From positions 14,780-78,779 of the forward strand of contig JAMCUI010000007.1 in assembly GCA_023379265.1 (NCBI GenBank): DNA of 64,000 nt, read 5' to 3'. The translations under genes and the position numbers were made by a program. The notes beneath the pieces are model-generated. The model saw nothing but the letters and a program-made list of their open reading frames with translations. It ran no database searches and was not told where the DNA came from. This stretch comes from Patescibacteria group bacterium (GTDB lineage Bacteria; Patescibacteriota; Microgenomatia; 2-02-FULL-39-11). Positions 1-27,520 of this stretch are shown piece after piece; within the stretch, counting starts at the first letter, position 1; every line of letters starts with the position of its first letter.

Positions 1-34
1 TCGGGGAATCACCCAATGGTATTTCCAGTATGGA

Positions 35-427
35 ATGGATAAAGTCATCGCTTTTACATCTGAAAATGAAAGGAAATATAAAAATATAATAATAGACAAT
101 ACTATCAATCAACCCTATATTTATGTCCTTTTTTACAAGAAAGTCGATCCAAAAACATTAACTGAGCAAGACTACAAGGATTTTTCCCACGTAGATCCTA
201 CAACCAACTGGTTAGCAGTCTCTAAATTCCGCAACTACGGCTTCCGGAAGATTACTAGTGAAAACATGCAAGGAGCAAAATTATTAAAAACAGTTTATAA
301 CAGCCCTTATTCCCAATACGGTATCTATACAAAAGGCGGAAATCTGATAGTCAGGTTTGAAGTAATAAATTCCAATGTGACTGTTTCAAACGCGTTGATT
401 TCTGAAGCCAATTCAGTTAAAATATGA
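35..427 (+). CDS. hypothetical protein (frame open to window start; may be 5'-partial)
   Basis: 130-aa ORF with no recognisable motifs. The reading frame has no stop between position 2 and the ATG at 35, so the true start may lie outside the window. Confidence 0.35.
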   Translation: MDKVIAFTSENERKYKNIIIDNTINQPYIYVLFYKKVDPKTLTEQDYKDFSHVDPTTNWLAVSKFRNYGFRKITSENMQGAKLLKTVYNSPYSQYGIYTKGGNLIVRFEVINSNVTVSNALISEANSVKI

Positions 428-439
428 TAACCAAATTAC

Positions 440-512
440 CGCGGGGTAGTGTACAGTTGCACAGGAGGCTCATAATCTCCTAGGCCGGGTGCGACTCCCG
501 GCTCCGCAACCA
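440..512 (+). tRNA. tRNA-like element, initiator tRNA-fMet-like (anticodon CAT, encoded CCA), non-canonical D-arm and T-loop
   Basis: The 5' end CGCGGGG and 3' end CTCCGCAACCA mirror the E. coli tRNA-fMet acceptor, including the C1xA72 mismatch and an encoded CCA. The anticodon stem GGAGG/TCTCC carries the loop CTCATAA (CAT at 471-473). The T-stem is CCGGG/CCCGG. The D-arm is shortened with a 3-4 bp stem and no GG, and the T-loop TGCGACT is atypical. Confidence 0.45.
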
Positions 513-522
513 ATAACTAAAT

Positions 523-547
523 AGCGCCTCACAAGGCGCTGTTTTGG
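523..547 (+). terminator. rho-independent terminator-like hairpin
   Basis: AGCGCC-TCACAA-GGCGCT stem-loop followed by GTTTTGG. It sits between convergent genes and just downstream of the tRNA-like element. Confidence 0.4.
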
Positions 548-569
548 TATTTCAATAAAAACAGTTATC

Positions 570-1493
570 CTATGAAACGATATTAACTGGTTTTCCTTGG
601 AGATAAGACTCAATATTTTTAGTCACACCATTTGCCAATCTCTCTTGAGATTGCCTAGTATTCCAAGCGATATGTGGTGTCACAACTACATTTGATAGTG
701 AAAAAAGTGGATTATTTTTATCCGGCGGTTCTTTTTCGAAAACATCAAGACCAGCTCCATACAAATGTCTATTCTTCAGGTATTTAATTAAAGCTTTTTC
801 ATCCACCACTTTCCCCCTTGAGGTATTAACCACAATTGCTCCGGCAGGAAGAAGTGACAGCTCTTTTTCACCTATTAATTTTTCTGTTTCTGGCGTCAGA
901 GGAATATTAATTGAAAGTACATTGCTTTGTCTGAGTAGATTTTCTAAATCAGATTGTGATGATTTAGAATTTATATAAACAGTCTTCATTCCGAAGGCAC
1001 GTGCCAACTTCCCTACTCTTCTACCGATATTGCCATACCCTAAAATACCCAAAGTCTTGCCTTTAAGTTCTTCTCCTGCATTACCTTTGGGATCAAATTT
1101 CCCTATCTTAATTGTATTTTGCGCCAAGTTCAGCTGACGGGAAACAGAGAGCATTAGAAGAATTGCGTGCTCGGCAACAGATTCAGAGGAAAATGCTGGC
1201 ACATTGGACACTCTCACTTTATATTTTCTTGCTGCCTTAATATCCGTCCAATTCTGATATCCTGTCATAGCCATCACTACATAATGCAAATTTTTGGCAT
1301 TTTGGAAAATTTTTTCCCCTATGTAAACCCATTTGCTGACTATAATTGTCGCGTCTTTTACTAGCTCCAACACTTCTTTCTCTTTGGGCCAGGAAGAATA
1401 CGGTAAAACAACATCAGCCTGTTTCTTAAGCTTATCAATAAGCTCTTCCGATATCTGCAATTTATCAAGGAATACTATCTTCTCCCTTTTCAT
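570..1493 (-). CDS. D-isomer-specific 2-hydroxyacid dehydrogenase (glycerate/phosphoglycerate dehydrogenase family)
   Basis: 307 aa. Rossmann NAD-binding motif GILGYGNIGRRVG, and a catalytic-domain arrangement typical of the D-2-hydroxyacid dehydrogenase family. Confidence 0.8.
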   Translation of the reverse strand: MKREKIVFLDKLQISEELIDKLKKQADVVLPYSSWPKEKEVLELVKDATIIVSKWVYIGEKIFQNAKNLHYVVMAMTGYQNWTDIKAARKYKVRVSNVPAFSSESVAEHAILLMLSVSRQLNLAQNTIKIGKFDPKGNAGEELKGKTLGILGYGNIGRRVGKLARAFGMKTVYINSKSSQSDLENLLRQSNVLSINIPLTPETEKLIGEKELSLLPAGAIVVNTSRGKVVDEKALIKYLKNRHLYGAGLDVFEKEPPDKNNPLFSLSNVVVTPHIAWNTRQSQERLANGVTKNIESYLQGKPVNIVS

Positions 1494-1656
1494 TTCGTAG
1501 AGTATATACCATCCGTACCAAAAAGTTAATAAACTTTTATAATATTAAATTTCTTAAATAACTTTGTTTTCTTTTTTTTCTAGCCGAATTCTTTATGCTA
1601 TAATTGGAAAATTGACGGATAGCAAGCCAGCTATCTCAAGAGAACATTATCAAACT

Positions 1657-1690
1657 TTGAATTAAATTTTGGGTAAAACTTTAGTAATAT
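1657..1690 (+). promoter_or_regulatory. candidate sigma70-type promoter for tRNA-Met
   Basis: TTAAAT (1662-1667), a 17-bp spacer, then TAATAT (1685-1690) ending 5 bp before the tRNA 5' end. The genome is AT-rich, so specificity is weak. Confidence 0.25.
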
Positions 1691-1695
1691 AGCTT

Positions 1696-1768
1696 GCCAG
1701 CGTAGCTCAGTGGTAGAGCAGCGTCTTCATAAGGCGTGGGTCACAGGTCCGAATCCTGTCGCTGGTAC
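1696..1768 (+). tRNA. tRNA-Met (anticodon CAT), elongator type
   Basis: Full cloverleaf. Acceptor GCCAGCG/CGCTGGT (G1-U72), D-arm GCTC-AGTGGTA-GAGC, anticodon stem GCGTC/GGCGT with loop TTCATAA, T-arm ACAGG-TCCGAAT-CCTGT, discriminator A. No CCA is encoded. It could alternatively be Ile2 (lysidine), but a separate tRNA-Ile(TAT) is present in the window. Confidence 0.85.
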
Positions 1769-2079
1769 TGTATCACAAATCTCCGGTCCGAATCCTGTCG
1801 CTGGTACTGTATCACAAATCTCCGGTCCGAATCCTGTCGCTGGTACTGTATCACAAATCTCCGGTCCGAATCCTGTCGCTGGTACTGTATCACAAATCTC
1901 CGGTCCGAATCCTGTCGCTGGTACTGTATCACAAATCTCCGGTCCGAATCCTGTCGCTGGTACTGTATCACAAATCTCCGGTCCGAATCCTGTCGCTGGT
2001 ACTGTATCACAAATCTCCGGTCCGAATCCTGTCGCTGGTACTGTATCACAAATCTCCGGTCCGAATCCTGTCGCTGGTA
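1746..2079. repeat. perfect 39-bp tandem repeat array; each unit is the 3' 22 nt of tRNA-Met plus a 17-nt spacer (9 copies of the tRNA segment)
   Basis: The unit CTGTATCACAAATCTCC+GGTCCGAATCCTGTCGCTGGTA repeats head-to-tail without mismatches. The first copy of the 22-mer is the T-arm and acceptor 3' end of the tRNA itself. Stop-free frames on both strands produce the artefactual repeat-peptide ORFs seen in the six-frame track. Confidence 0.95.
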
Positions 2080-2086
2080 CAATATT

Positions 2087-3133
2087 TTAATAGAAAATGA
2101 TTGAAGTCAGCATATAATTGTATATATAGGTGATGTCCGAAATGCTGACATTACTGGCTATTCCAAACGATCCGTTGAACCTCGGAAATATTGAAGCTAT
2201 ATAGCTTTGTCCCAAAGCTCCCTGCGTATATAGAGTTCCGTTTACCCCATCAACAACTATCGGTACAACGTATGGTGGATTATTGTTTACCTGGGGCATT
2301 GTGTAATTTGCCGCCACTCCAAGCCCTATATGAGGCGTATCAGGAGAATTTATGTCATATCCCGGAGGAAATACCGCTATCCCCTCATGATTGTTGGAAA
2401 TACTTTTTATCATCTGCCAGTTTGATGGATATTGGATCATATACCTATCCTGTGGATTATCATAGACTGCCCATGTCACTTGTACGGGAGGTGTGGAAGG
2501 CGGAGTATAGACTTGAGTTTGCCCATTAGTATCTTGAAAGATTATCTGCACGCTAGTGACTGGATTGGGTGTAGGATTTACAGAATTTCCATTATTGGAA
2601 TTGACAGAGGTTTGTGAATGTGATGTATTTACTAATCCTTCCGAAGTTGACATCCCTCCCTGTTTAGAACTATTTGAAGTACTATTTTGGGAAGTTTGAT
2701 TTGGTACATTCCCGCTTCCGGTCACAGATAAACTATTTTTTTTATCTTCATTTCCCACATTCACACCTGTAACTAGTGGGCTTTGTGGGCTAGTAGCATC
2801 TGTACCGGTTTTCCTGTTTGTGCCTGGAGTAATCTTTAGTAATATATCAATTAGCCAATTTGGGTTATCTTGGCTTGTTGTTGGTATCAAGTCTCCTAAT
2901 TTATGCTTGTAAATAAAATTACTTGAACTTTGGGGAGGTTTAGGCAAAAAAATCCTAATAATTATCAGTATTGCTGCTATGCTTAAGACGCTTATAATTC
3001 CGGGGATAAATAACTTATGTAAGTGTGAGGGCAAAACCATTTTCTTCTTTGATTTTTCCGTAATCATGCCCTTGCTGTCTATACTGTAAGCCATAACTAA
3101 TTTTAGAAAAAAAGTTTTACCCACTTTTGCCAA
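2087..3133 (-). CDS. hypothetical membrane-anchored/secreted protein with Ser/Thr/Asn-rich linker
   Basis: 348 aa. N-terminal TM (IISVLSIAAILIIIRIFL), a low-complexity S/T/N-rich stretch, and a C-terminal globular region with no recognisable motifs. Confidence 0.45.
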   Translation of the reverse strand: MAKVGKTFFLKLVMAYSIDSKGMITEKSKKKMVLPSHLHKLFIPGIISVLSIAAILIIIRIFLPKPPQSSSNFIYKHKLGDLIPTTSQDNPNWLIDILLKITPGTNRKTGTDATSPQSPLVTGVNVGNEDKKNSLSVTGSGNVPNQTSQNSTSNSSKQGGMSTSEGLVNTSHSQTSVNSNNGNSVNPTPNPVTSVQIIFQDTNGQTQVYTPPSTPPVQVTWAVYDNPQDRYMIQYPSNWQMIKSISNNHEGIAVFPPGYDINSPDTPHIGLGVAANYTMPQVNNNPPYVVPIVVDGVNGTLYTQGALGQSYIASIFPRFNGSFGIASNVSISDITYIYNYMLTSIIFY

Positions 3134-3456
3134 TTCAAACTTGCATCCTGAGGCGTAGGCGATGGTTCCGCTATTGGAGAAACCGTAGGAAGCAAAAGTA
3201 CCACCTCGTCTTCTTTACCTAGATTCAATTTATCCCGCGCCTCCTTTTCTATATATTGCTTACTTTCCACTTCAGCTAGTTTTCTTTTCAGCTGGTTATT
3301 GTTGTTTTGTGCGTCCTGAAGCTGATTTTGGGTACTCTGTATAATTTTTTCCCGTTGGGAAATCTTTACCCATGAACGGACTATTCCTACAACAAGCATA
3401 ACAAACACTATCAAAAGTATCCAATTTAGCAGTTTATATCGGTCCATAATTGACAA
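3103..3456 (-). CDS. septum formation initiator FtsB/DivIC-like protein
   Basis: 117 aa. N-terminal TM followed by a coiled coil, and the family-typical motif YIEKEARDKLNLGKEDEVVL. Confidence 0.6.
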   Translation of the reverse strand: MSIMDRYKLLNWILLIVFVMLVVGIVRSWVKISQREKIIQSTQNQLQDAQNNNNQLKRKLAEVESKQYIEKEARDKLNLGKEDEVVLLLPTVSPIAEPSPTPQDASLNWQKWVKLFF

Positions 3457-3485
3457 AAATCCCTTCTTGATGTATTATAGGCCCC

Positions 3486-4355
3486 ATGAATTCAGATAAA
3501 AACACTGATTTGTCTTCTGCTCGTGAACAATTTATCAGATATCTCACAGAAAACAGAAGGGCTCATGCTACTATTTTAGCATACAGCAAAGATATAGAGC
3601 AGCTGGTCGCCTTTCTTTCTGACATGGGCAAAAAGCAGATTATTGAAGTAGAAAAAATAGATCTTGATGGCTTTCTGAAAAAACTTTCCACAGATGGTTA
3701 TACTCTTAAATCCCTCTCCCGAAAAATAAACTCCATAAAAACATTCTATCGGTTTCTTAAAAACCAAAATCTTATTACAACCAATCCAGCAGCAGAGATT
3801 ACCCACCCAAAATATGAGACTAAACCCCCCAGAATACTATCAAAGATGGAATATAGAGCTTTAAGGGACGCTTGCAGATCAGATATAAGAACTTATGCCA
3901 TCGTGGAGCTCTTCCTTCAGACGGGCATAAGAATTGGAGAATTGGCTAATTTAAAACTGATAGATGCCAATGAAAGAGAATTAATAATTAGACCTCAAGA
4001 GAGTCATCCGCAACGCTCAATACCTTTGAATAAGGCAGCCAAAGCTGCACTGGATAAATGGCTAATTATAAGACCAAAAACCAATGGCGAAGCTCTTTTT
4101 GTCACCAAAACCGGCAGGCCGCTTTTAGTTCGTAATATTAGGACTACTATAGATAGATATTTTAAGATTGCCGGTATTGAAAACGCCAAAGTAAATGATC
4201 TCAGACATACTTTTATTGCACACCATCTAGCTGCAGGAACAGATCTTACCATGATCAGCCAGTTAGTAGGACACAAAAGACTGGCTACTACAGAAAAATA
4301 CCTAGACCTCATAAAGGACAAGGCCGTCTCCAACCTGAAACTGGAAGAGCTTTAA
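3486..4355 (+). CDS. tyrosine site-specific recombinase, XerC/XerD family
   Basis: 289 aa. N-terminal core-binding SAM-like domain. C-terminal catalytic signature LRHTFIAHHLAAGTDLTMISQLVGHKRLATTEKYLDL, i.e. the R...HxxR...Y tail. Confidence 0.8.
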   Translation: MNSDKNTDLSSAREQFIRYLTENRRAHATILAYSKDIEQLVAFLSDMGKKQIIEVEKIDLDGFLKKLSTDGYTLKSLSRKINSIKTFYRFLKNQNLITTNPAAEITHPKYETKPPRILSKMEYRALRDACRSDIRTYAIVELFLQTGIRIGELANLKLIDANERELIIRPQESHPQRSIPLNKAAKAALDKWLIIRPKTNGEALFVTKTGRPLLVRNIRTTIDRYFKIAGIENAKVNDLRHTFIAHHLAAGTDLTMISQLVGHKRLATTEKYLDLIKDKAVSNLKLEEL

Positions 4356-4568
4356 CTTGAACTGTTGAGCATTAACGTCTCTTCTTACCTTACTCTCCTT
4401 CCTTTTCCGATATTATTAATTTCATCACTTGTGAGTCCAGATAAGTTGATTTTATTGTGAAACGTGAGGGATAAAAGCACTGTTTTTTCTGTTGAAGTAT
4501 TTAGAACCGAAACTCTTAAGTTTTCCAGCAGTGCAAACAATGAACAAGTTTTTTAATTGGATTTTATG

Positions 4569-4640
4569 TGGAACCGGATGGAGTCGAACCATCTACATCG
4601 ACTTTATAAGAGTCGCGTTCTGCCGGTGAACTACGGTTCC
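4569..4640 (-). tRNA. tRNA-Ile (anticodon TAT/UAU)
   Basis: Reverse complement folds as acceptor GGAACCG/CGGTTCC, D-arm GTTC-ACCGGCA-GAAC, anticodon stem CGACT/AGTCG with loop CTTATAA (TAT), T-arm GATGG-TTCGACT-CCATC, discriminator A. No CCA. Confidence 0.8.
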
Positions 4641-4756
4641 ATGCAACCTGTCCCATAAATTTGCCTCGATTACAAATTATTCAGACAGTCGAAAATTAAA
4701 GGAACAAAGCGCTAACGTGTCTGAAATTATAGAATATACGGGGAGAAATGTAAATT

Positions 4757-7102
4757 TTATAGTTTAGCGCGCTGGGATATTTCTGCTTCTACTAATTCCC
4801 TAGGCCTTCCATACTTCAACCGTGAAAGAGAAAGTATCGCCTCTGCCACCTTGGGGTTTTCAATCTTCTTTTGCGCTGCCATATCTTTTCTCAAATCAAC
4901 AGAAAATGGTGGAACCGGTTTATTCCCTACTATGGTATTTACATAGGCATTATAAACGTCAACGTTAATAAGATCTCCTTCATTAAATACCGGAGTAAAC
5001 CAGTGTTGTAAATAATTAGCATCAGTTACGCCTACTCTAAATGTAATAAGTGTCCCAACGTTACCAAAGACGGCATTTTTTACCTCCTCCTCCATTTGTC
5101 CTATAAACTGGTTAGCCACACAAAGGTTTAGCCTGAATTTCCTGGCCTCAGAGAGTATTTGGGCAAAATCAGGTGTTGCAAAATTCTGAAATTCATCAAC
5201 ATAAAGAAAAAAGTCTTTTCTTTTATCTTCAGGAGTATCCACCCGACTCATGGCGGCTACCAGAATTTTTGGCACCAGGATTAAACCAAGGAAACTGGAA
5301 TTTTCTTCTCCCAGTTTTCCCTTGGCAAGATTGACAAGAAGAATCTTCCCTTCATCCATCACTTTTCTAAAATCAAACGCACTTTTACTTTGTCCGATTA
5401 TGTTTCTCATAAGTTTATTAGTGACAAAACGGCCGAATTTTGAAACAATATAATCCAATACTTCAGATTTATGAAAATCTGAAGTCTGCGCAATCTGGTC
5501 AGTCCAATAACGTCTTACAATCGGATCCTGAACTTTTGGAAGAAGCTCCTGAACATATGAAGAATCAGTCAGAACTCTAACAACCTCTACAAAAGAAGCA
5601 CCTGGCTCCACCATAACAGTCAACATTGCATTTCTTATGGCGTGCTCAAATCGTGGGCCAATAATACCTGTTTTCTGCGGATCATAAAGTTTGTACATTA
5701 ACCCTATGATTGAAGTGACTATAAAATGTTTCTGTTCCTCGGTATAGGCTTCAAGCATATTAAGTCCCATTGGTCTTTCTCCATCTGAAGGATCAAAATA
5801 GATGATATCCTCAGCTCTTTCTGGAGGAATAAGAGGTAAAAGTCCCTCAACTAAATCTCCGTGAGGATCAATAACTGCAACTCCTTTCCCTTCCTTTATA
5901 TCCTGCAAAACCATATCTTTCAGAAGTACAGATTTACCAACCCCTGTTTTCCCAATTATATAAACATGCCGCCTTCTGTCATCAAGTTGCATGTAAACAG
6001 GACGCATAATTCCACGGTAGACACTTTTACCTAAATACATTCCCGATGTTGGAGTTTCGGCAGGAGCTGGGGCTTTTTTGGATGTTACCCAGTTGATATG
6101 AGGCGTTTCAATAGTTTTATTGGGAAAATGGAATATTGTAGCCAACTCTTCACTGGAAAGGATAGAAAGTTGCCTATGTGGCCAGTTCACCATAGGAAAA
6201 TACCGATATATAAAATCCACCATAAATGAACTCTTCATTAGGTGCTTGGCACGGGTGAAGTGATTTAAGTCGGAAGCAAACTGTGCAAAGACCGCCTCAA
6301 TATTATGAAGATGCATGTTGGCTGACTCAAGCGTTGTCGAGGTTACTACTACCCTTATAACAGTCTTAAAACCAGGTTTTGAGGTCTTATTTTCAACCGC
6401 TTCAAGTACTTTAGGATCAACATTATACTTTGCTTTTTCAGGATTGGCTTCATTTTTCTTGATGCTGGAAACGTAACTTCTACCCTTTTTCTTCCACTTA
6501 CCATCAGCGGGAGTTATCAATATTTGTATAGAAGCACCTTCCCCAGTCTGCATTTTTCCTAGTGCAGAAGTAACTGCTGAAAGAGGATCGACAGGCAAGT
6601 CCTTATAAAAACGCATCGGGTAAAAATCCGCATGCTGTAGTATATAGGAGGCAAAAGCTACCTTTCCGTCTTCATTAAAAATATTATACTCATCCACCTC
6701 CTTAATTTCTGCCTCTGGATACATTCCGTAGATCTGCTTTTCTAACAGATCGCGCAAATGGTGATGAACAGATATATAAAACTTTATGTCTCCAGGGGTA
6801 CCGACTATCTCAAACGAAATATGATCTGAAGCTTTCAGGAATGACAAAAATCCTCCGTGAGAGAGTGAAGCGAGAGAGGAAAAAAACTGTTCAGCCGCAT
6901 CAATTTTTATTTCATTATTTTTGGGAACCATTACCTGCAATAACACAAACTCGAGACTTTTTTTCTCGCGTCCCCGGTGTTTCCACCAAAGAAAAAGAAA
7001 ATATGAAAGAAGCGACAATCCTACTAAAAGAATTACCAACGCTCCCATAACCAAAGCTAAGTCTTCAAGCCTAAAAACAATTTGTGAAGGATCAGTGTAC
7101 AT
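4757..7102 (-). CDS. membrane-anchored P-loop ATPase, VirD4/TraG/TraD-type type IV coupling protein-like (FtsK-HerA superfamily)
   Basis: 781 aa. N-terminal TM. Walker A GKTGVGKS followed by VIDPHGD (the DPKGE-like T4CP motif). IIYFDPSD...GLNML (NPL-like). Walker B YVDEFQNF. ARKFRLNLCVANQFIGQM resembles the T4CP RKxG...Q motif. The ~340-aa N-terminal domain before the P-loop is unusually long. Confidence 0.5.
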   Translation of the reverse strand: MYTDPSQIVFRLEDLALVMGALVILLVGLSLLSYFLFLWWKHRGREKKSLEFVLLQVMVPKNNEIKIDAAEQFFSSLASLSHGGFLSFLKASDHISFEIVGTPGDIKFYISVHHHLRDLLEKQIYGMYPEAEIKEVDEYNIFNEDGKVAFASYILQHADFYPMRFYKDLPVDPLSAVTSALGKMQTGEGASIQILITPADGKWKKKGRSYVSSIKKNEANPEKAKYNVDPKVLEAVENKTSKPGFKTVIRVVVTSTTLESANMHLHNIEAVFAQFASDLNHFTRAKHLMKSSFMVDFIYRYFPMVNWPHRQLSILSSEELATIFHFPNKTIETPHINWVTSKKAPAPAETPTSGMYLGKSVYRGIMRPVYMQLDDRRRHVYIIGKTGVGKSVLLKDMVLQDIKEGKGVAVIDPHGDLVEGLLPLIPPERAEDIIYFDPSDGERPMGLNMLEAYTEEQKHFIVTSIIGLMYKLYDPQKTGIIGPRFEHAIRNAMLTVMVEPGASFVEVVRVLTDSSYVQELLPKVQDPIVRRYWTDQIAQTSDFHKSEVLDYIVSKFGRFVTNKLMRNIIGQSKSAFDFRKVMDEGKILLVNLAKGKLGEENSSFLGLILVPKILVAAMSRVDTPEDKRKDFFLYVDEFQNFATPDFAQILSEARKFRLNLCVANQFIGQMEEEVKNAVFGNVGTLITFRVGVTDANYLQHWFTPVFNEGDLINVDVYNAYVNTIVGNKPVPPFSVDLRKDMAAQKKIENPKVAEAILSLSRLKYGRPRELVEAEISQRAKL

Positions 7103-7663: not shown

Positions 7664-8296
7664 TCAGTTTTCCCTTGCTTTGTGATTCAATTTTATTCCA
7701 GAAAAATTAAGTGAAGACAGAAAAGTTTTTATGGTTTCAGCTGTAAAGAAAGAGATAGGAACTAAAACTACATTGCCTATGAGGTTGTATTTGAAAAAAG
7801 GCAAACCTAAAATATAAGCATCAACTAATCCGGATAATGTTCTTGGATACATACCCCAATTATCCAAAAACCATACGCCGAAATTCGTCCAAAGATAAAA
7901 CCAAAAAGACGCAGCAATACCCACACCTCCTGCCGTTAAAAGCTTAAAAACTAAATTTCTTTCTCCGGCAGCTTTACTTTTGAAATTTAGTTTCAAAATT
8001 CCCATCAAACCAATCACAATATAACCGCTCCATGTGAACATAAATATATTTGTATTTCCAATCAACACATCCGTAACCGCCATAATAAAAAAAGGTACAA
8101 CCAAAGCGTATTTTTTGCCCAAGTATGCAGCTGAAAGAAGAGTTGCTGAGGTAACAAATTCCACATTATCTCCGATATGAAAAACCGTTCTAGAGAGAAT
8201 ACCTAAAATTACTAGGATAAAAGCGAGTAAATATTTTTCTTTATCTTTTCTTCCCATTTTCCTCAAATTAAAATTTAGAATAAATCCATTCGACAT
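7664..8296 (-). CDS. small polytopic membrane protein, ECF-transporter S-component-like (candidate cobalamin/corrinoid substrate-binding component)
   Basis: 210 aa with ~6 predicted TM helices and a short basic C-terminus. Size and topology resemble ECF S components. It overlaps the DUF4430 gene and lies in an operon headed by a cobalamin-riboswitch-like leader. Confidence 0.35.
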   Translation of the reverse strand: MSNGFILNFNLRKMGRKDKEKYLLAFILVILGILSRTVFHIGDNVEFVTSATLLSAAYLGKKYALVVPFFIMAVTDVLIGNTNIFMFTWSGYIVIGLMGILKLNFKSKAAGERNLVFKLLTAGGVGIAASFWFYLWTNFGVWFLDNWGMYPRTLSGLVDAYILGLPFFKYNLIGNVVLVPISFFTAETIKTFLSSLNFSGIKLNHKAREN

Positions 8297-8741
8297 GGTC
8301 TCCTGGATATATCACATATCTATCAGCAGCAATAGTACCCGTTTTCCCATTTACCTTATATATCCAGCCGTATTGTCCACCATTTGCCCTATCGCCAATC
8401 TTGGTCACCATTATTCCGTATTTATACTGTTTTATCTCTATATCTATTTTCTTGTCAGTAGCCAATTTTTTAAGCGCCTGATATACTGTCTGTACGTATA
8501 CCTCGCCTGTTTCATTTTTTCCATTACCAAAATCAATTGACACTATTTCCAAAGATGTTACACTCTGCGTGGGTGACGGCTGCTGTTGATTGCTTAGCTC
8601 TGTGGTTTGAATATTACGGTTTACGATATTTGGTAAATTAATAACCGATTGCTGTTTTTGCAACACATATTGCCCAAAGACAACCAAAATTACTACGATT
8701 AAACCGGTAAATATAAACAATTTTTTTGAATTTCTTTTCAT
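8268..8741 (-). CDS. DUF4430-family (transcobalamin/intrinsic-factor beta-domain-like) secreted protein
   Basis: 157 aa. N-terminal signal anchor. The C-terminal motif GWIYKVNG...YVIYPGDHVEWIYS matches the W-x-Y-x-V-N-G ... D-G-D-x-V-x-W-x-Y signature of DUF4430 proteins, which are found next to ECF/cobalamin transporters. Confidence 0.5.
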   Translation of the reverse strand: MKRNSKKLFIFTGLIVVILVVFGQYVLQKQQSVINLPNIVNRNIQTTELSNQQQPSPTQSVTSLEIVSIDFGNGKNETGEVYVQTVYQALKKLATDKKIDIEIKQYKYGIMVTKIGDRANGGQYGWIYKVNGKTGTIAADRYVIYPGDHVEWIYSKF

Positions 8742-8796: not shown

Positions 8797-11283
8797 TTAA
8801 TTTATTGCTGTTTCTGAAGTAGCAGTGTCGCTAAAACTGTAAATTACTCCAGATAGGAGTATATTTGTTCTAAATCTCTTGTCATTCACTTTTATATTTT
8901 TTGTGTTTGCATTTTTGCCTTGAAATTTTCCTGAAAATAACAGTTTTTCTATTGATTTTACCTGCTGATCTTTGCCTTTTTTATACCATCTCCGGCTATT
9001 TTGACATTGTATTATATGCTGCTTAAGTTTGATAAATAAAACAAGACAATAAATTATAAAAAGAATCTCCCAATATGCTTCCTTATACTTATCCATTTCA
9101 AGATTTGACACCCGGTCTTGCAGTAATAATAACGGTAATAACCCATCTTTTAAGTTTAGGTATTGCTCCTCAAATAAGCTGTCATAACTTTTAAGAAATT
9201 CTATTTTCTCCTGTAACTGGTCTAGATTTTCTTGTGTAAATCTGTCGGAATAATCAGATATAAGCCGTTTCAGCTGAATATAGATAATTGTTGAAACAAG
9301 AAATTTAATCTGTTCGGGCATTTTATCCACTCTAAACACCTCCGTAAGTACTGACAATGAGGTAACAATATCTGAAATATTTTTGAGAATGGAAGGGATC
9401 TCTGGCTTTAAGAATGTCTGATCTCTAGAATCTTTGAGTAAATCTATTATTTCCTCAGTTAGAAATATCAAATCCATATATATTTCTCTTCTACCATTAC
9501 GAGTCAAACTATCCCGTTTTCCTGGATACGTAGCATTATTTTCCCCACATGTAAGAAAAGATTCCAATCTAAAATCATCAAAATATCTGAAAATATGTAC
9601 AAATCTTTCTGTAAAATCTGCATCCCACATCGGTTGAAAAATAAAACCATCCTTTTGAAAAGATGTGCTTTGTGAAATATCAAATCTATATTTATGCGCA
9701 ATAAGGCTATGTAATTTCATAAAGTCTTGCTGCACTTCTTTAGTATTTTGTGATAAACTAAATTCTCCAAATTGTCTACCTAACTTATTGCTATGTTCAG
9801 CGCTAAATTCTTTCTCTTCACTTAACTCTAAAGGTTTATTAGGACTCATCTCGATAATTTGTTTTTCGCTTCGTTTATAGCTCCCGGTCGTGCTTGAAAG
9901 TAGGGTTTTGAGATGACTTCTAGACTGATCTGGATTATGAGAAATCAGAAGAAACTGTTCAAAATTCAGTAATTGTTCTTCTAGTAAATCAATCTCAGCC
10001 AAAGTGTCTTTGACATAATTCCACGGCAATATTTCCTTTCGTTCATTGCTCTTTTCTTCACCATCTAAGATTTCTTTTTCTTCTTTCCCCTCCACGCTCT
10101 TTAACCATTCTTTTTTATCTAAAACATCTACTGGAAACACTTTGGGCAAAACAGTAGCTCCTACTGTATCATCAATCAAACTCCTCATAAAAGCATAAGC
10201 AGCCAACACACGCATCCGGTCTAGAGTATCAATCTCTCTAACCTCCTTGGCAAATTCGGTTTGAGATTTATCAAAATCACTTTTATTATCAGCATAAAAA
10301 TCTATCTCTTTGAAGTTTTCTTCTTTTTTCCTTTCTCTACCGTTTATCCTTTGAGTGGACATTCCATCAGACTCTAGTCTTTTGATACCATTTGTTCCGT
10401 TACCTCTACCTTCTCTAACAAAATCTTCTTCCACCTGTAAAACCAAAGCTTGAGCCATCATCGCAAAAGCTGTCTTTATATTCTTGTCTTTCTCTGCCAT
10501 CTTTTCCATTTCCCCTGCATAAAATTGCTCCTTTGCCTTATTTTCTGACTCTCTTTGGAAATCAGAGATTAATGTTTCCTGCTTAAACTTATCTAAAACG
10601 CTTTTCTCGCTTTCCCTCTTTTCTGCTGAAAACGATTGGGAAAATGATTCAAATATTTCCGTATGGTCAATATTTTTCCCCCGGGATTCAACTAAAACCG
10701 TTTCTTCTTCAATCGTATCGTGACGATCATGTTTTTCTCCAGTTACTCTATCCAAAAAATTCCATAGCGTGTCGCTATCCCCACCTACAGTATATGAAGT
10801 CAATTTGACGGTATCACCTTTTTTCTCTGCCTTATAAATCCTGTTATTTCTTCCGTGAGTATCCTTCGTCTCTTTCCTACTACTCACCCACACTGCAGTT
10901 ATATCAGACTCATCAGAAGCTATCTTATGATATTTATCAATAAGCTGACGATAGGTCTGCCCCCCATTCTCCTTATCATCAATCCATACCTCTGCCGCTT
11001 CTCCTTCCTGTGAGAGCAAAGTGTCCACGAATTCCTCCTGTCCGGAAATTTTATTTCTCACTTTTACATTTTTGCCTATCCTCAATGTAACTTGATTTAT
11101 GACGCTTCCATCGGTACTAAATTCATCCTGATATGTCCTCATATCCCGCGCCATGGCTGATACTGCTTTTTTACCCTCACCCAACCGCTCCATCACGCTA
11201 AAGGCTCTGGCGCTTGATAAATCATGATCTCCAGCTGAACCATTTGTTCCGATTCCCATCGGTGCAATCGCTTCAACCATCAT
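8797..11283 (-). CDS. large uncharacterised protein (828 aa), acidic/charged, single TM near C-terminus; first gene downstream of cobalamin-riboswitch-like leader
   Basis: Long ORF with no signal peptide and one hydrophobic segment (WEILFIIYCLVLFIKL) about 90 aa from the C-terminus. No catalytic motif recognised. Confidence 0.45.
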   Translation of the reverse strand: MMVEAIAPMGIGTNGSAGDHDLSSARAFSVMERLGEGKKAVSAMARDMRTYQDEFSTDGSVINQVTLRIGKNVKVRNKISGQEEFVDTLLSQEGEAAEVWIDDKENGGQTYRQLIDKYHKIASDESDITAVWVSSRKETKDTHGRNNRIYKAEKKGDTVKLTSYTVGGDSDTLWNFLDRVTGEKHDRHDTIEEETVLVESRGKNIDHTEIFESFSQSFSAEKRESEKSVLDKFKQETLISDFQRESENKAKEQFYAGEMEKMAEKDKNIKTAFAMMAQALVLQVEEDFVREGRGNGTNGIKRLESDGMSTQRINGRERKKEENFKEIDFYADNKSDFDKSQTEFAKEVREIDTLDRMRVLAAYAFMRSLIDDTVGATVLPKVFPVDVLDKKEWLKSVEGKEEKEILDGEEKSNERKEILPWNYVKDTLAEIDLLEEQLLNFEQFLLISHNPDQSRSHLKTLLSSTTGSYKRSEKQIIEMSPNKPLELSEEKEFSAEHSNKLGRQFGEFSLSQNTKEVQQDFMKLHSLIAHKYRFDISQSTSFQKDGFIFQPMWDADFTERFVHIFRYFDDFRLESFLTCGENNATYPGKRDSLTRNGRREIYMDLIFLTEEIIDLLKDSRDQTFLKPEIPSILKNISDIVTSLSVLTEVFRVDKMPEQIKFLVSTIIYIQLKRLISDYSDRFTQENLDQLQEKIEFLKSYDSLFEEQYLNLKDGLLPLLLLQDRVSNLEMDKYKEAYWEILFIIYCLVLFIKLKQHIIQCQNSRRWYKKGKDQQVKSIEKLLFSGKFQGKNANTKNIKVNDKRFRTNILLSGVIYSFSDTATSETAIN

Positions 11284-11345: not shown

Positions 11346-11454
11346 CAAAATGATCAACGAATTCTCAAGTTACCCAATTTCAAACAAGCAAATTATGTGT
11401 ACTTATTGATTGATTGGATAATTGTATTGTTTGTTGATTTATTACTTTCCTGCT

Positions 11455-11575
11455 CGGGATAAACTTGAAGGGGAGTTCCCGGCTTATATCGCAGAAGGCG
11501 AAATTCACGGTTGCGGCACAGTCCCTGATTTTCACAGGGTTCCTCTTTTCCTTCAATAGAGTTGTTAATTTACTT
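11455..11575 (-). ncRNA. cobalamin (B12) riboswitch, short-type aptamer
   Basis: The minus-strand RNA reads GGAACCCUGUGAAAAUCAGGGACUGUGCCGCAACCGUGAA...AAGCCGGGAACUCCCC. This matches the cobalamin riboswitch core GGAA-nnn-GGUG-AAA-UCC...GC-C-CCGCAAC-UGUAA and a B12-box-like AAGCC-GGGA...CCCC. It is followed by a terminator and then a gene. Confidence 0.55.
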
Positions 11576-27380: not shown

Positions 27381-27405
27381 AAAAAAACCATTCCGCAAGG
27401 AATGG
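27381..27405 (-). terminator. intrinsic terminator (TPP riboswitch expression platform)
   Basis: On the minus strand: CCAUUCC-UUGC-GGAAUGG followed by UUUUUUUAU, immediately 5' of the cytX start. Confidence 0.6.
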
Positions 27406-27520
27406 CTGTATATTTTCCCTGCGTTGGCATTATCCAAATCAGGTTATATGGGTCATCCCGATATATTTCGAGAACTCTCAGCCTGATTTCCATCAAGCTC
27501 CCCATTTAATAATTAATATT
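27405..27520 (-). ncRNA. TPP (THI-box) riboswitch
   Basis: Minus-strand RNA contains GGGGAGC...GGCUGAGA...GAUGACCC...AACCUGAUUUGGAUAAUGCCAACGCAGGGA. This is a near-consensus THI element (CUGAGA; ACCUGAUCUGGAUAAUGCCAGCGUAGGGA). Confidence 0.85.

Follow-up and report, generated by a model that had tools for sequence, protein, structure and literature searches.

A perfect 39-bp tandem array fused to a tRNA-Met gene in Candidatus Gottesmanbacteria, probably a slippage minisatellite seeded by a relic tRNA fragment

The window analysed here is one stretch of DNA, 64,000 nucleotides long; the source names of its closest homologues point to Candidatus Gottesmanbacteria, of the Patescibacteria candidate-phyla group. 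A tRNA-Met gene in it continues directly into a tandem array built from the 3' end of that same gene. The features of the locus are listed below.

570..1493, reverse strand: 2-hydroxyacid dehydrogenase
1696..1767, forward strand: elongator-type tRNA-Met(CAT) (1696..1768 according to ARAGORN; 65 bits against Rfam RF00005)
1746..2080, forward strand: perfect 39-bp array of 8.6 units (TRF); unit 1 is the tRNA's own 3' end
1746..1767, forward strand: first 22-mer, the genuine 3' end of the tRNA (positions 52-73); exact matches, with 0 expected by chance
1768..1784, forward strand: first 17-nt spacer, CTGTATCACAAATCTCC; the later ones start at 1807, 1846, 1885, 1924, 1963, 2002 and 2041
2058..2079, forward strand: terminal 22-mer abutting the unique flank CAATATTTTAATAG; homologue of the diverged relic TGTCCGAATCCTGTCGCAGGCA of the sister species
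2087..3094, reverse strand: lineage-specific protein of 335 aa; a search of 5.8 billion proteins gave only four homologues
3103..3456, reverse strand: DivIC
3486..4355, forward strand: Xer-type recombinase of 289 aa, 1.4 kb from the array end
4568..4640, reverse strand: tRNA-Ile(TAT)
4757..7102, reverse strand: VirD4-like ATPase

TRF assigns to the array (1746..2080) 8.6 copies of a 39-bp period with 100% matches, 0% indels and a score of 670; this is the only strong tandem repeat that it reports in the 64 kb. There are nine occurrences of the 22-mer GGTCCGAATCCTGTCGCTGGTA, all free of mismatches, at 1746, 1785, 1824, 1863, 1902, 1941, 1980, 2019 and 2058, i.e., at 1746+39k with a spacing of exactly 39 between all nine. 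The 17-mer CTGTATCACAAATCTCC occurs eight times, again with 0 mismatches and each time flanked by 22-mers. The “perfect tandem copies” with 17-nt spacers described in the initial annotation are thus borne out both by the TRF identity and by the nine and eight exact matches. Elsewhere in the 64 kb no further 22-mer is found even at up to 3 mismatches, and 0 of 100 shuffled sequences contained a match.

The array begins inside the tRNA-Met gene, at tRNA position 52. The 22-mer starts with the last 2 bases of the 5' T-stem strand and runs from there through the entire T-loop and the 3' strands of the T-stem and the acceptor stem to the discriminator A73; its earlier description as “T-arm 3' half, acceptor 3' strand and discriminator” is accurate for the last two elements, but the block (positions 52-73) exceeds the T-arm 3' half. 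The repeat units have no 5' acceptor strand and have lost most of the T-stem's 5' strand. They carry CTCCGG in place of CACAGG, so that the left half of the T-stem inverted repeat is gone and 2 of the 5 stem bases are left; judged by eye, the inverted repeat in the units is a 2-bp remnant.

The tRNA-Met(CAT) gene itself is 72 nt long including the discriminator A73 and does not encode CCA. Its acceptor stem is GCCAGCG/CGCTGGT with a G1.U72 wobble, and its T-loop (1749..1755) reads TCCGAAT, with C at position 55. The C55 replaces the nearly universal U55 (pseudouridine 55), and the same holds for the related loci L005, L006, L009, L010 and L011; since the TCCGAAT T-loop is kept in at least seven genomes, it is not a sequencing error. 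The array-fused gene is the sole elongator-type tRNA-Met of the window. A tRNA-Ile(TAT) gene at 4568..4640 on the reverse strand is conserved in relatives, which suggests that the tRNA decoding AUA has a UAU anticodon and is not a CAU tRNA modified with lysidine; this favours taking the tRNA at 1696 for an elongator tRNA-Met over a tRNA-Ile2.

The window contains two other tRNAs, and neither is surrounded by repeats or relic tRNA fragments. The initiator tRNA at 440..512 has a C1xA72 mismatch, an encoded CCA, a D-loop without the GG dinucleotide and the T-loop UGCGACU, and is near-identical across the examined Gottesmanbacteria loci; its score with the Rfam tRNA model is only 39 bits, and the scan of the whole window lost it at the fast filters. 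Just upstream of tRNA-Ile(TAT), several related Gottesmanbacteria carry an 8-bp tandem repeat (TAATCAAC) in 3.5-5.4 copies, which is missing at the matching place of the window (4641..4756):

L020, 3573..3660: 8-bp repeat TAATCAAC
L021, 1518..1556: the same repeat
L023, 4360..4387: the same repeat
L024, 2766..2793: the same repeat

Some observations made further along the window concern other subjects. A cobalamin riboswitch at 11453..11569 on the reverse strand (32.8 bits against the Rfam gathering threshold of 31.5) is followed on that strand by an ORF for an 828-aa protein lacking any Pfam domain (8797..11283), and then by DUF4430 and DUF6580 proteins (ORFs 8268..8741 and 7664..8296, both reverse strand). 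These genes could form an uptake operon under B12 control, the large protein being a component of uncharacterised role. At 27398..27514 on the reverse strand there is a TPP riboswitch.

A perfect array in a metagenome-assembled genome (MAG) invites the objection that it was made by the assembler, i.e., that the array or its nine copies arose from traversal of a de Bruijn loop and that the true number of copies is one or two. The perfect 334-bp repeat does exceed typical short reads, and short-read assemblers only estimate the copy number; both nine-copy assemblies are MAGs, and the sister species described below has the two-copy form only. Nevertheless, the identical nine-copy array is present in both deposited assemblies: the NCBI MAG contig JAMDBJ010000021.1 (GCA_023487465.1), which is distinct from the contig of the window and differs from it in extent, matches window positions 1..5493 with one SNP, at 4106. 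In a cluster look-up the flanking genes have two NCBI protein accessions, on contigs of 187 kb and 48 kb.

Stronger evidence comes from the run SRR10267473, whose independently built Logan contigs (k=31, which we take to be the setting used) end at window position 1775 and, in the exit contig L016, begin at 2051. The last 31-mer to hold A1745, the base preceding unit 1, ends at 1775, and the first 31-mer to hold A2081, the first base unlike the spacer, starts at 2051. These are the expected entry and exit of a 39-bp cycle in a k=31 de Bruijn graph, so the reads hold spacer-22mer-spacer and, consequently, at least three 22-mers; the break points also imply that the last copy of the 22-mer is identical to the first. 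Two 22-mers only would share no 31-mer (22 < 30) and the contig would run through, which is precisely what is seen in the sister-species runs (L013 and L014). The assembly-graph support sought by the initial annotation is thereby obtained for three or more copies. The array is real, with at least three copies independently supported, and we regard an artefact as highly improbable. Nine is the figure that the two deposited assemblies give; the Logan contigs break at the array and yield no copy count.

When one genome of each species was scanned for the 22-mer, a single contig came up, L001 (CAZFNL010000099.1). Together with L012 it is syntenic with the window; the nucleotide identity is about 95% in the downstream genes and 88% in the upstream dehydrogenase gene. 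It has the identical 72-nt tRNA (2280..2352, reverse strand) and the identical 17-nt spacer; the spacer is followed by just one more 3' copy, TGTCCGAATCCTGTCGCAGGCA, with 3 differences in its 22 positions, and beyond this copy the flank CAATATTTTAATAG is that of the window. This structure was assembled identically and unbroken from two other runs (L013 and L014). The array thus comprises 8.6 units in the window vs 1.56 in the sister species. The initial annotation proposed that sibling genomes be compared for variable copy number: the number does vary between the two sister species, but within the species both assemblies show nine copies, so that polymorphism has not been observed so far. The relic copy of L001 keeps C72, the outgroup state, while the functional tRNA has T72.

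Two properties of the L001 locus should be mentioned separately. Immediately upstream of the intact tRNA-Met, at 2353..2425 on the reverse strand, there is a copy of tRNA positions 1-21 (GCCAGCGTAGCTCAGTGGTAG) with 52 unrelated nt; this insertion is also found in L013 and L014 and is missing from the window. When the 52-nt insert and the 17-nt spacer were compared by BLAST with the window and the fetched loci, only chance matches of at most 12 nt appeared. In addition, L001/L012 (CAZFNL010000099.1, GCA_964520615.1) are titled “uncultured Gammaproteobacteria bacterium”, yet they are 88-95% identical to a Gottesmanbacteria locus; the MAG is probably mislabelled or contaminated.

Scanning metagenome contigs with a degenerate 22-mer added five genomes (L005, L006, L009, L010 and L011), all with the same tRNA type, the 3' end ...CGCTGGCA and a G1-C72 pair. 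Neither a downstream duplicate nor a tRNA-derived tandem repeat or relic is found in these five loci or in six others (L018, L020, L022, L023, L025 and L027), i.e., in none of the 11 related loci. The seed, consisting of the tRNA, 17 nt and a second 3' copy, is common to two species and is therefore older than the array. Judged by these comparisons, the expansion is specific to the lineage of the window.

We consider it likely that the array is a lineage-specific minisatellite of the VNTR type, generated by slippage from a relic tRNA 3' fragment and most probably devoid of function. The ancestor of both species would have held a small direct duplication: tRNA-Met, 17 bp and a second copy of its last 22 bp. 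In the lineage of the window, the 22-bp direct repeats 39 bp apart would have misaligned by slipped-strand mispairing or unequal sister-strand recombination, and whole 39-bp units would have accumulated to about nine 22-mers. Direct repeats of this kind are a classic substrate for slipped-strand mispairing and unequal sister-strand exchange, both of which add perfect units. Replication slippage was among the mechanisms initially proposed, and it is the best-supported one, as the unexpanded seed is kept in the sister species; that expansion took place by slippage is what we infer from this pair of structures. The accompanying statement that “perfect identity implies very recent expansion” agrees with our data insofar as the perfect identity of units fits a recent expansion.

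One observation does not fit well. The terminal copy of the window is identical to the tRNA copy, whereas the terminal copy of the sister species has 3 differences in 22 positions; by simple slippage the copy next to the flank would never be replaced. The intergenic substitutions between the two species amount to 7 of 193 positions; given this divergence, the Poisson probability of 3 changes in 22 nt since the split is about 0.05 (our own arithmetic). The proposed history thus calls for one more event, for instance gene conversion, or else is not the true one: either the terminal copy was converted in the lineage of the window, or the L001 relic evolved unusually fast or was exchanged.

As to the seed itself, we presume that it is the scar of foreign DNA that was inserted into the tRNA gene or partly replaced it. 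This reading is suggested by the boundaries of the seed (T-stem to discriminator), which match the block duplicated by integrative elements that target tRNA genes; by the L001 relic, which retains the outgroup C72 opposite the T72 of the functional tRNA; and by the matching 5' fragment of L001 and a tRNA type foreign for the clade. tRNA gene fragments are documented as integration relics (PMC9897764; bioRxiv 10.1101/2020.12.28.424599).

The donor was sought in several collections. Among 2.9 million viral contigs none has the degenerate 22-mer; the tRNA with its 52-nt and 17-nt flanks showed only generic tRNA-body similarity to phages and plasmids, and phages and plasmids of this candidate-phyla group are probably poorly covered in these collections; the exact junction 35-mer had no match in JGI metagenome contigs; and neither the rest of the window and the fetched loci nor the phages, plasmids and viral contigs contain anything that resembles the 17-nt spacer. 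As neither the donor nor the source of the spacer was found, the scar origin stays at the level of a presumption. A 22-mer joined to CTGTATCAC... or ...AAATCTCC in a phage or plasmid contig would point to the donor element and to the scar origin.

The main competitor of slippage is a tyrosine recombinase, either the local Xer or an integrase encoded at another place or only temporarily in the cell, that would act on the T-arm inverted repeat and add units by unequal exchange between sister chromosomes. Positions 52-73 form a block typically common to the attP and attB of T-loop-targeting integrases (reportedly, it is the identity block typical of them), a Xer-family gene lies 1.4 kb away, and perfect units are the expected products, as seen. 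The recombinase itself, however, is a conserved core protein. Its best NCBIfam matches are XerC, XerD and XerA (E from 1e-45 to 1e-51, all under the equivalog cut-offs); it has more than 7000 homologues at E < 1e-60, nearly all of the top 120 being 289 aa long, and is conserved at 70-99% identity in more than 100 Gottesmanbacteria protein clusters. It adjoins DivIC in every relative inspected. In L005 and L010, which have neither the duplicate nor the array, it occupies the syntenic position with 45-50% identity. By this distribution we take it for a housekeeping-type core gene and not for the integrase of an element.

A tblastn search found no second tyrosine recombinase in the 64-kb window. 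The other units retain 2 of the 5 left T-stem bases, so a symmetric core site exists in unit 1 only, and no element with this att sequence was seen in the viral contigs, phages or plasmids. On this evidence expansion by a recombinase is unlikely. Of the earlier remark on “a XerC/D-family recombinase” 1.4 kb downstream, the location and the family are right, and the link to the array is not supported, the gene being a core one that array-less relatives also have. The idea of serial att duplication by an integrase fares no better: the window encodes no further tyrosine recombinase, and the 17 bp from one copy to the next leave no room for an element.

The array can also be compared with att relics, the partial tRNA copies (attL/attR) that integrative elements leave in tRNA genes (PMC9897764, with Reiter 1989 and Williams 2002 as cited there; for tycheposons, bioRxiv 10.1101/2020.12.28.424599). 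They have in common that the intact tRNA is followed by a direct copy of its 3' portion, up to the gene's 3' end, and the sister species has exactly one diverged copy together with a fragment of the 5' part. A row of several partial tRNAs is a known result of repeated integration. Here, in contrast, 17 bp and not kilobases of element separate the copies, there is neither integrase nor cargo, and the copies and spacers are all identical; the multiplicity therefore came from amplifying one presumed scar and not from serial integrations. A direct partial copy that runs to the tRNA 3' end is present, as att duplication demands, and a matching attP was not found in viral contigs, phages or plasmids. 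As in a Xer/dif system, the neighbouring recombinase is a XerC/D-like tyrosine recombinase conserved as a core gene. A dif-like site would have two inverted 11-bp arms about a centre of 6-8 bp; the inverted repeat seen by eye in the units is the 2-bp T-stem remnant mentioned above.

An integrated element between the full and partial tRNA copies was also considered and rejected: there are only 17 bp, the flanks are syntenic, and the sole recombinase is the core Xer. Separately, two high-GC metagenome contigs (L007 1792..1813 and L008 715..736, both reverse strand) carry what seems to be a lone 3' tRNA fragment ending in GGTCCGAATCCTGTCGCTGGCAcca; ARAGORN finds no complete tRNA there, and a tRNA-Val is nearby. 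The fragment resembles a typical att relic in an unrelated organism.

It is tempting to ascribe a role to the array, and one can propose that it is kept by selection, either as a DNA landing pad or decoy, or as an RNA string that titrates a factor which processes or targets tRNAs, or modulates the maturation of tRNA-Met. It is fused in register to the only elongator-type tRNA-Met of the window, there is no terminator between the two, so that co-transcription is plausible, and the homogeneity of units extends to the terminal copy, which slippage alone does not explain. All the same, the array is missing from the sister species and from 11 other relatives and so is not a conserved feature; there is no mobile element at its borders, and on either side the locus is syntenic with that of the sister species. 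The units have no 5' acceptor strand and cannot form a tRNA-like minihelix.

The folding of RNA and DNA is no better than that of shuffled sequence: the RNA of the tRNA with the array is less stable than shuffles (z = +1.45), and DNA folds of one and two units on both strands (-0.4 to -2.5 kcal/mol) do not surpass shuffles and give no hairpins. A scan of the locus for promoters and terminators gave the background level only. A coding repeat was rejected too, as the ORFs that span the array begin within the tRNA and three reading frames are open there. We therefore hold selection for such roles to be very improbable, and nothing was found in favour of the suggested landing pad or decoy. A bolder version, in which a selected battery of att cores or tRNA 3' ends absorbs or organises integrases, or in which eight extra 3' fragments per transcript protect or regulate the single elongator tRNA-Met, seems to us exceedingly improbable. 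From the absence of such signals, an array without function is the most likely case; its transcript, if made, would be part of the tRNA 3' trailer and would be removed during 3' end maturation.

A minisatellite born by slippage, as we favour, has obvious counterparts. Like bacterial VNTRs, the array consists of head-to-tail intergenic repeats with a unit of tens of bp, near-perfect identity and a copy number that differs between close lineages, and the presumed mechanism (slipped-strand mispairing or unequal recombination) is the same; the MIRU-VNTR loci of Mycobacterium tuberculosis have units of 40-100 bp. The period is constant, unit identity is high, and no coding or RNA/DNA structural element is present, as expected of such repeats. 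The differences are that the unit here comes from the 3' end of a functional tRNA gene, inside which the array starts, and that there is a single locus, not a dispersed family, with within-species polymorphism not yet seen.

In the mitochondria of animals, tRNA-derived sequence is also multiplied in tandem and the multiplication is ascribed to replication slippage; for instance, slipped-strand mispairing was invoked for a tandemly duplicated trnR with a truncated third copy (PMC5370444). Those repeats belong to an organelle and not to a bacterial chromosome, and what is repeated there is in most cases an entire tRNA gene or a piece of the control region, seldom in perfect copies. Our limited search of the literature found no description of such a minisatellite in bacteria or Patescibacteria. 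The initial statement that no minisatellite of this kind had been described can thus be kept for bacteria, within that search, but not in general, as tandem repeats of tRNA genes and pseudogenes have been reported in animal mitochondrial genomes.

Direct repeats of about 22 bp at regular distances, with short sequences in between, may also recall a CRISPR array. A repeat of 22 bp and a spacer of 17 bp are shorter than typical, and the repeat is a tRNA fragment. The CRISPR reading was rejected since the eight spacers are identical and no cas domains were detected in the ten neighbouring ORFs scanned; the initial annotation had dismissed it on the same grounds, and rightly.

The gene to which the array is fused has a history of its own. 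In six closer Gottesmanbacteria (Xer identity 80-86%), tRNA-Met is of another type, with the canonical GGTTCGA T-loop and other acceptor stems, and directly abuts DivIC:

L018, 2935..3008: tRNA-Met of the differing type
L020, 2043..2115: the same
L022, 3504..3576: the same
L023, 1745..1817: the same
L025, 1037..1109: the same
L027, 3434..3507: the same

In the window and in L001 this DivIC-adjacent slot is empty, and a tRNA of the GCCAGCG...GGTCCGAATCC type is located beyond the gene of the lineage-specific 335-aa protein, which is not homologous to the gene at the corresponding place of L020. The tRNA-Met type of the window matches that of the far more distant lineages L005, L006, L009, L010 and L011. 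It looks as if the essential elongator tRNA-Met gene has been replaced or relocated in this lineage, insofar as gene order and tRNA type can tell. Such a replacement or relocation would bear on the turnover of tRNA gene sets in the small genomes of this candidate-phyla group.

We believe that the array is an unusual but mechanistically ordinary minisatellite and does not constitute a new class of system. Perfect arrays of this kind break short-read assemblies and confuse tRNA annotation, and this one might be used as a marker to tell strains of the Gottesmanbacteria population apart. If our reading is true, the locus is a natural example of a tiny relic duplication of a tRNA gene turning into an unstable minisatellite, and the states before and after the birth of the minisatellite are preserved in two sister species.
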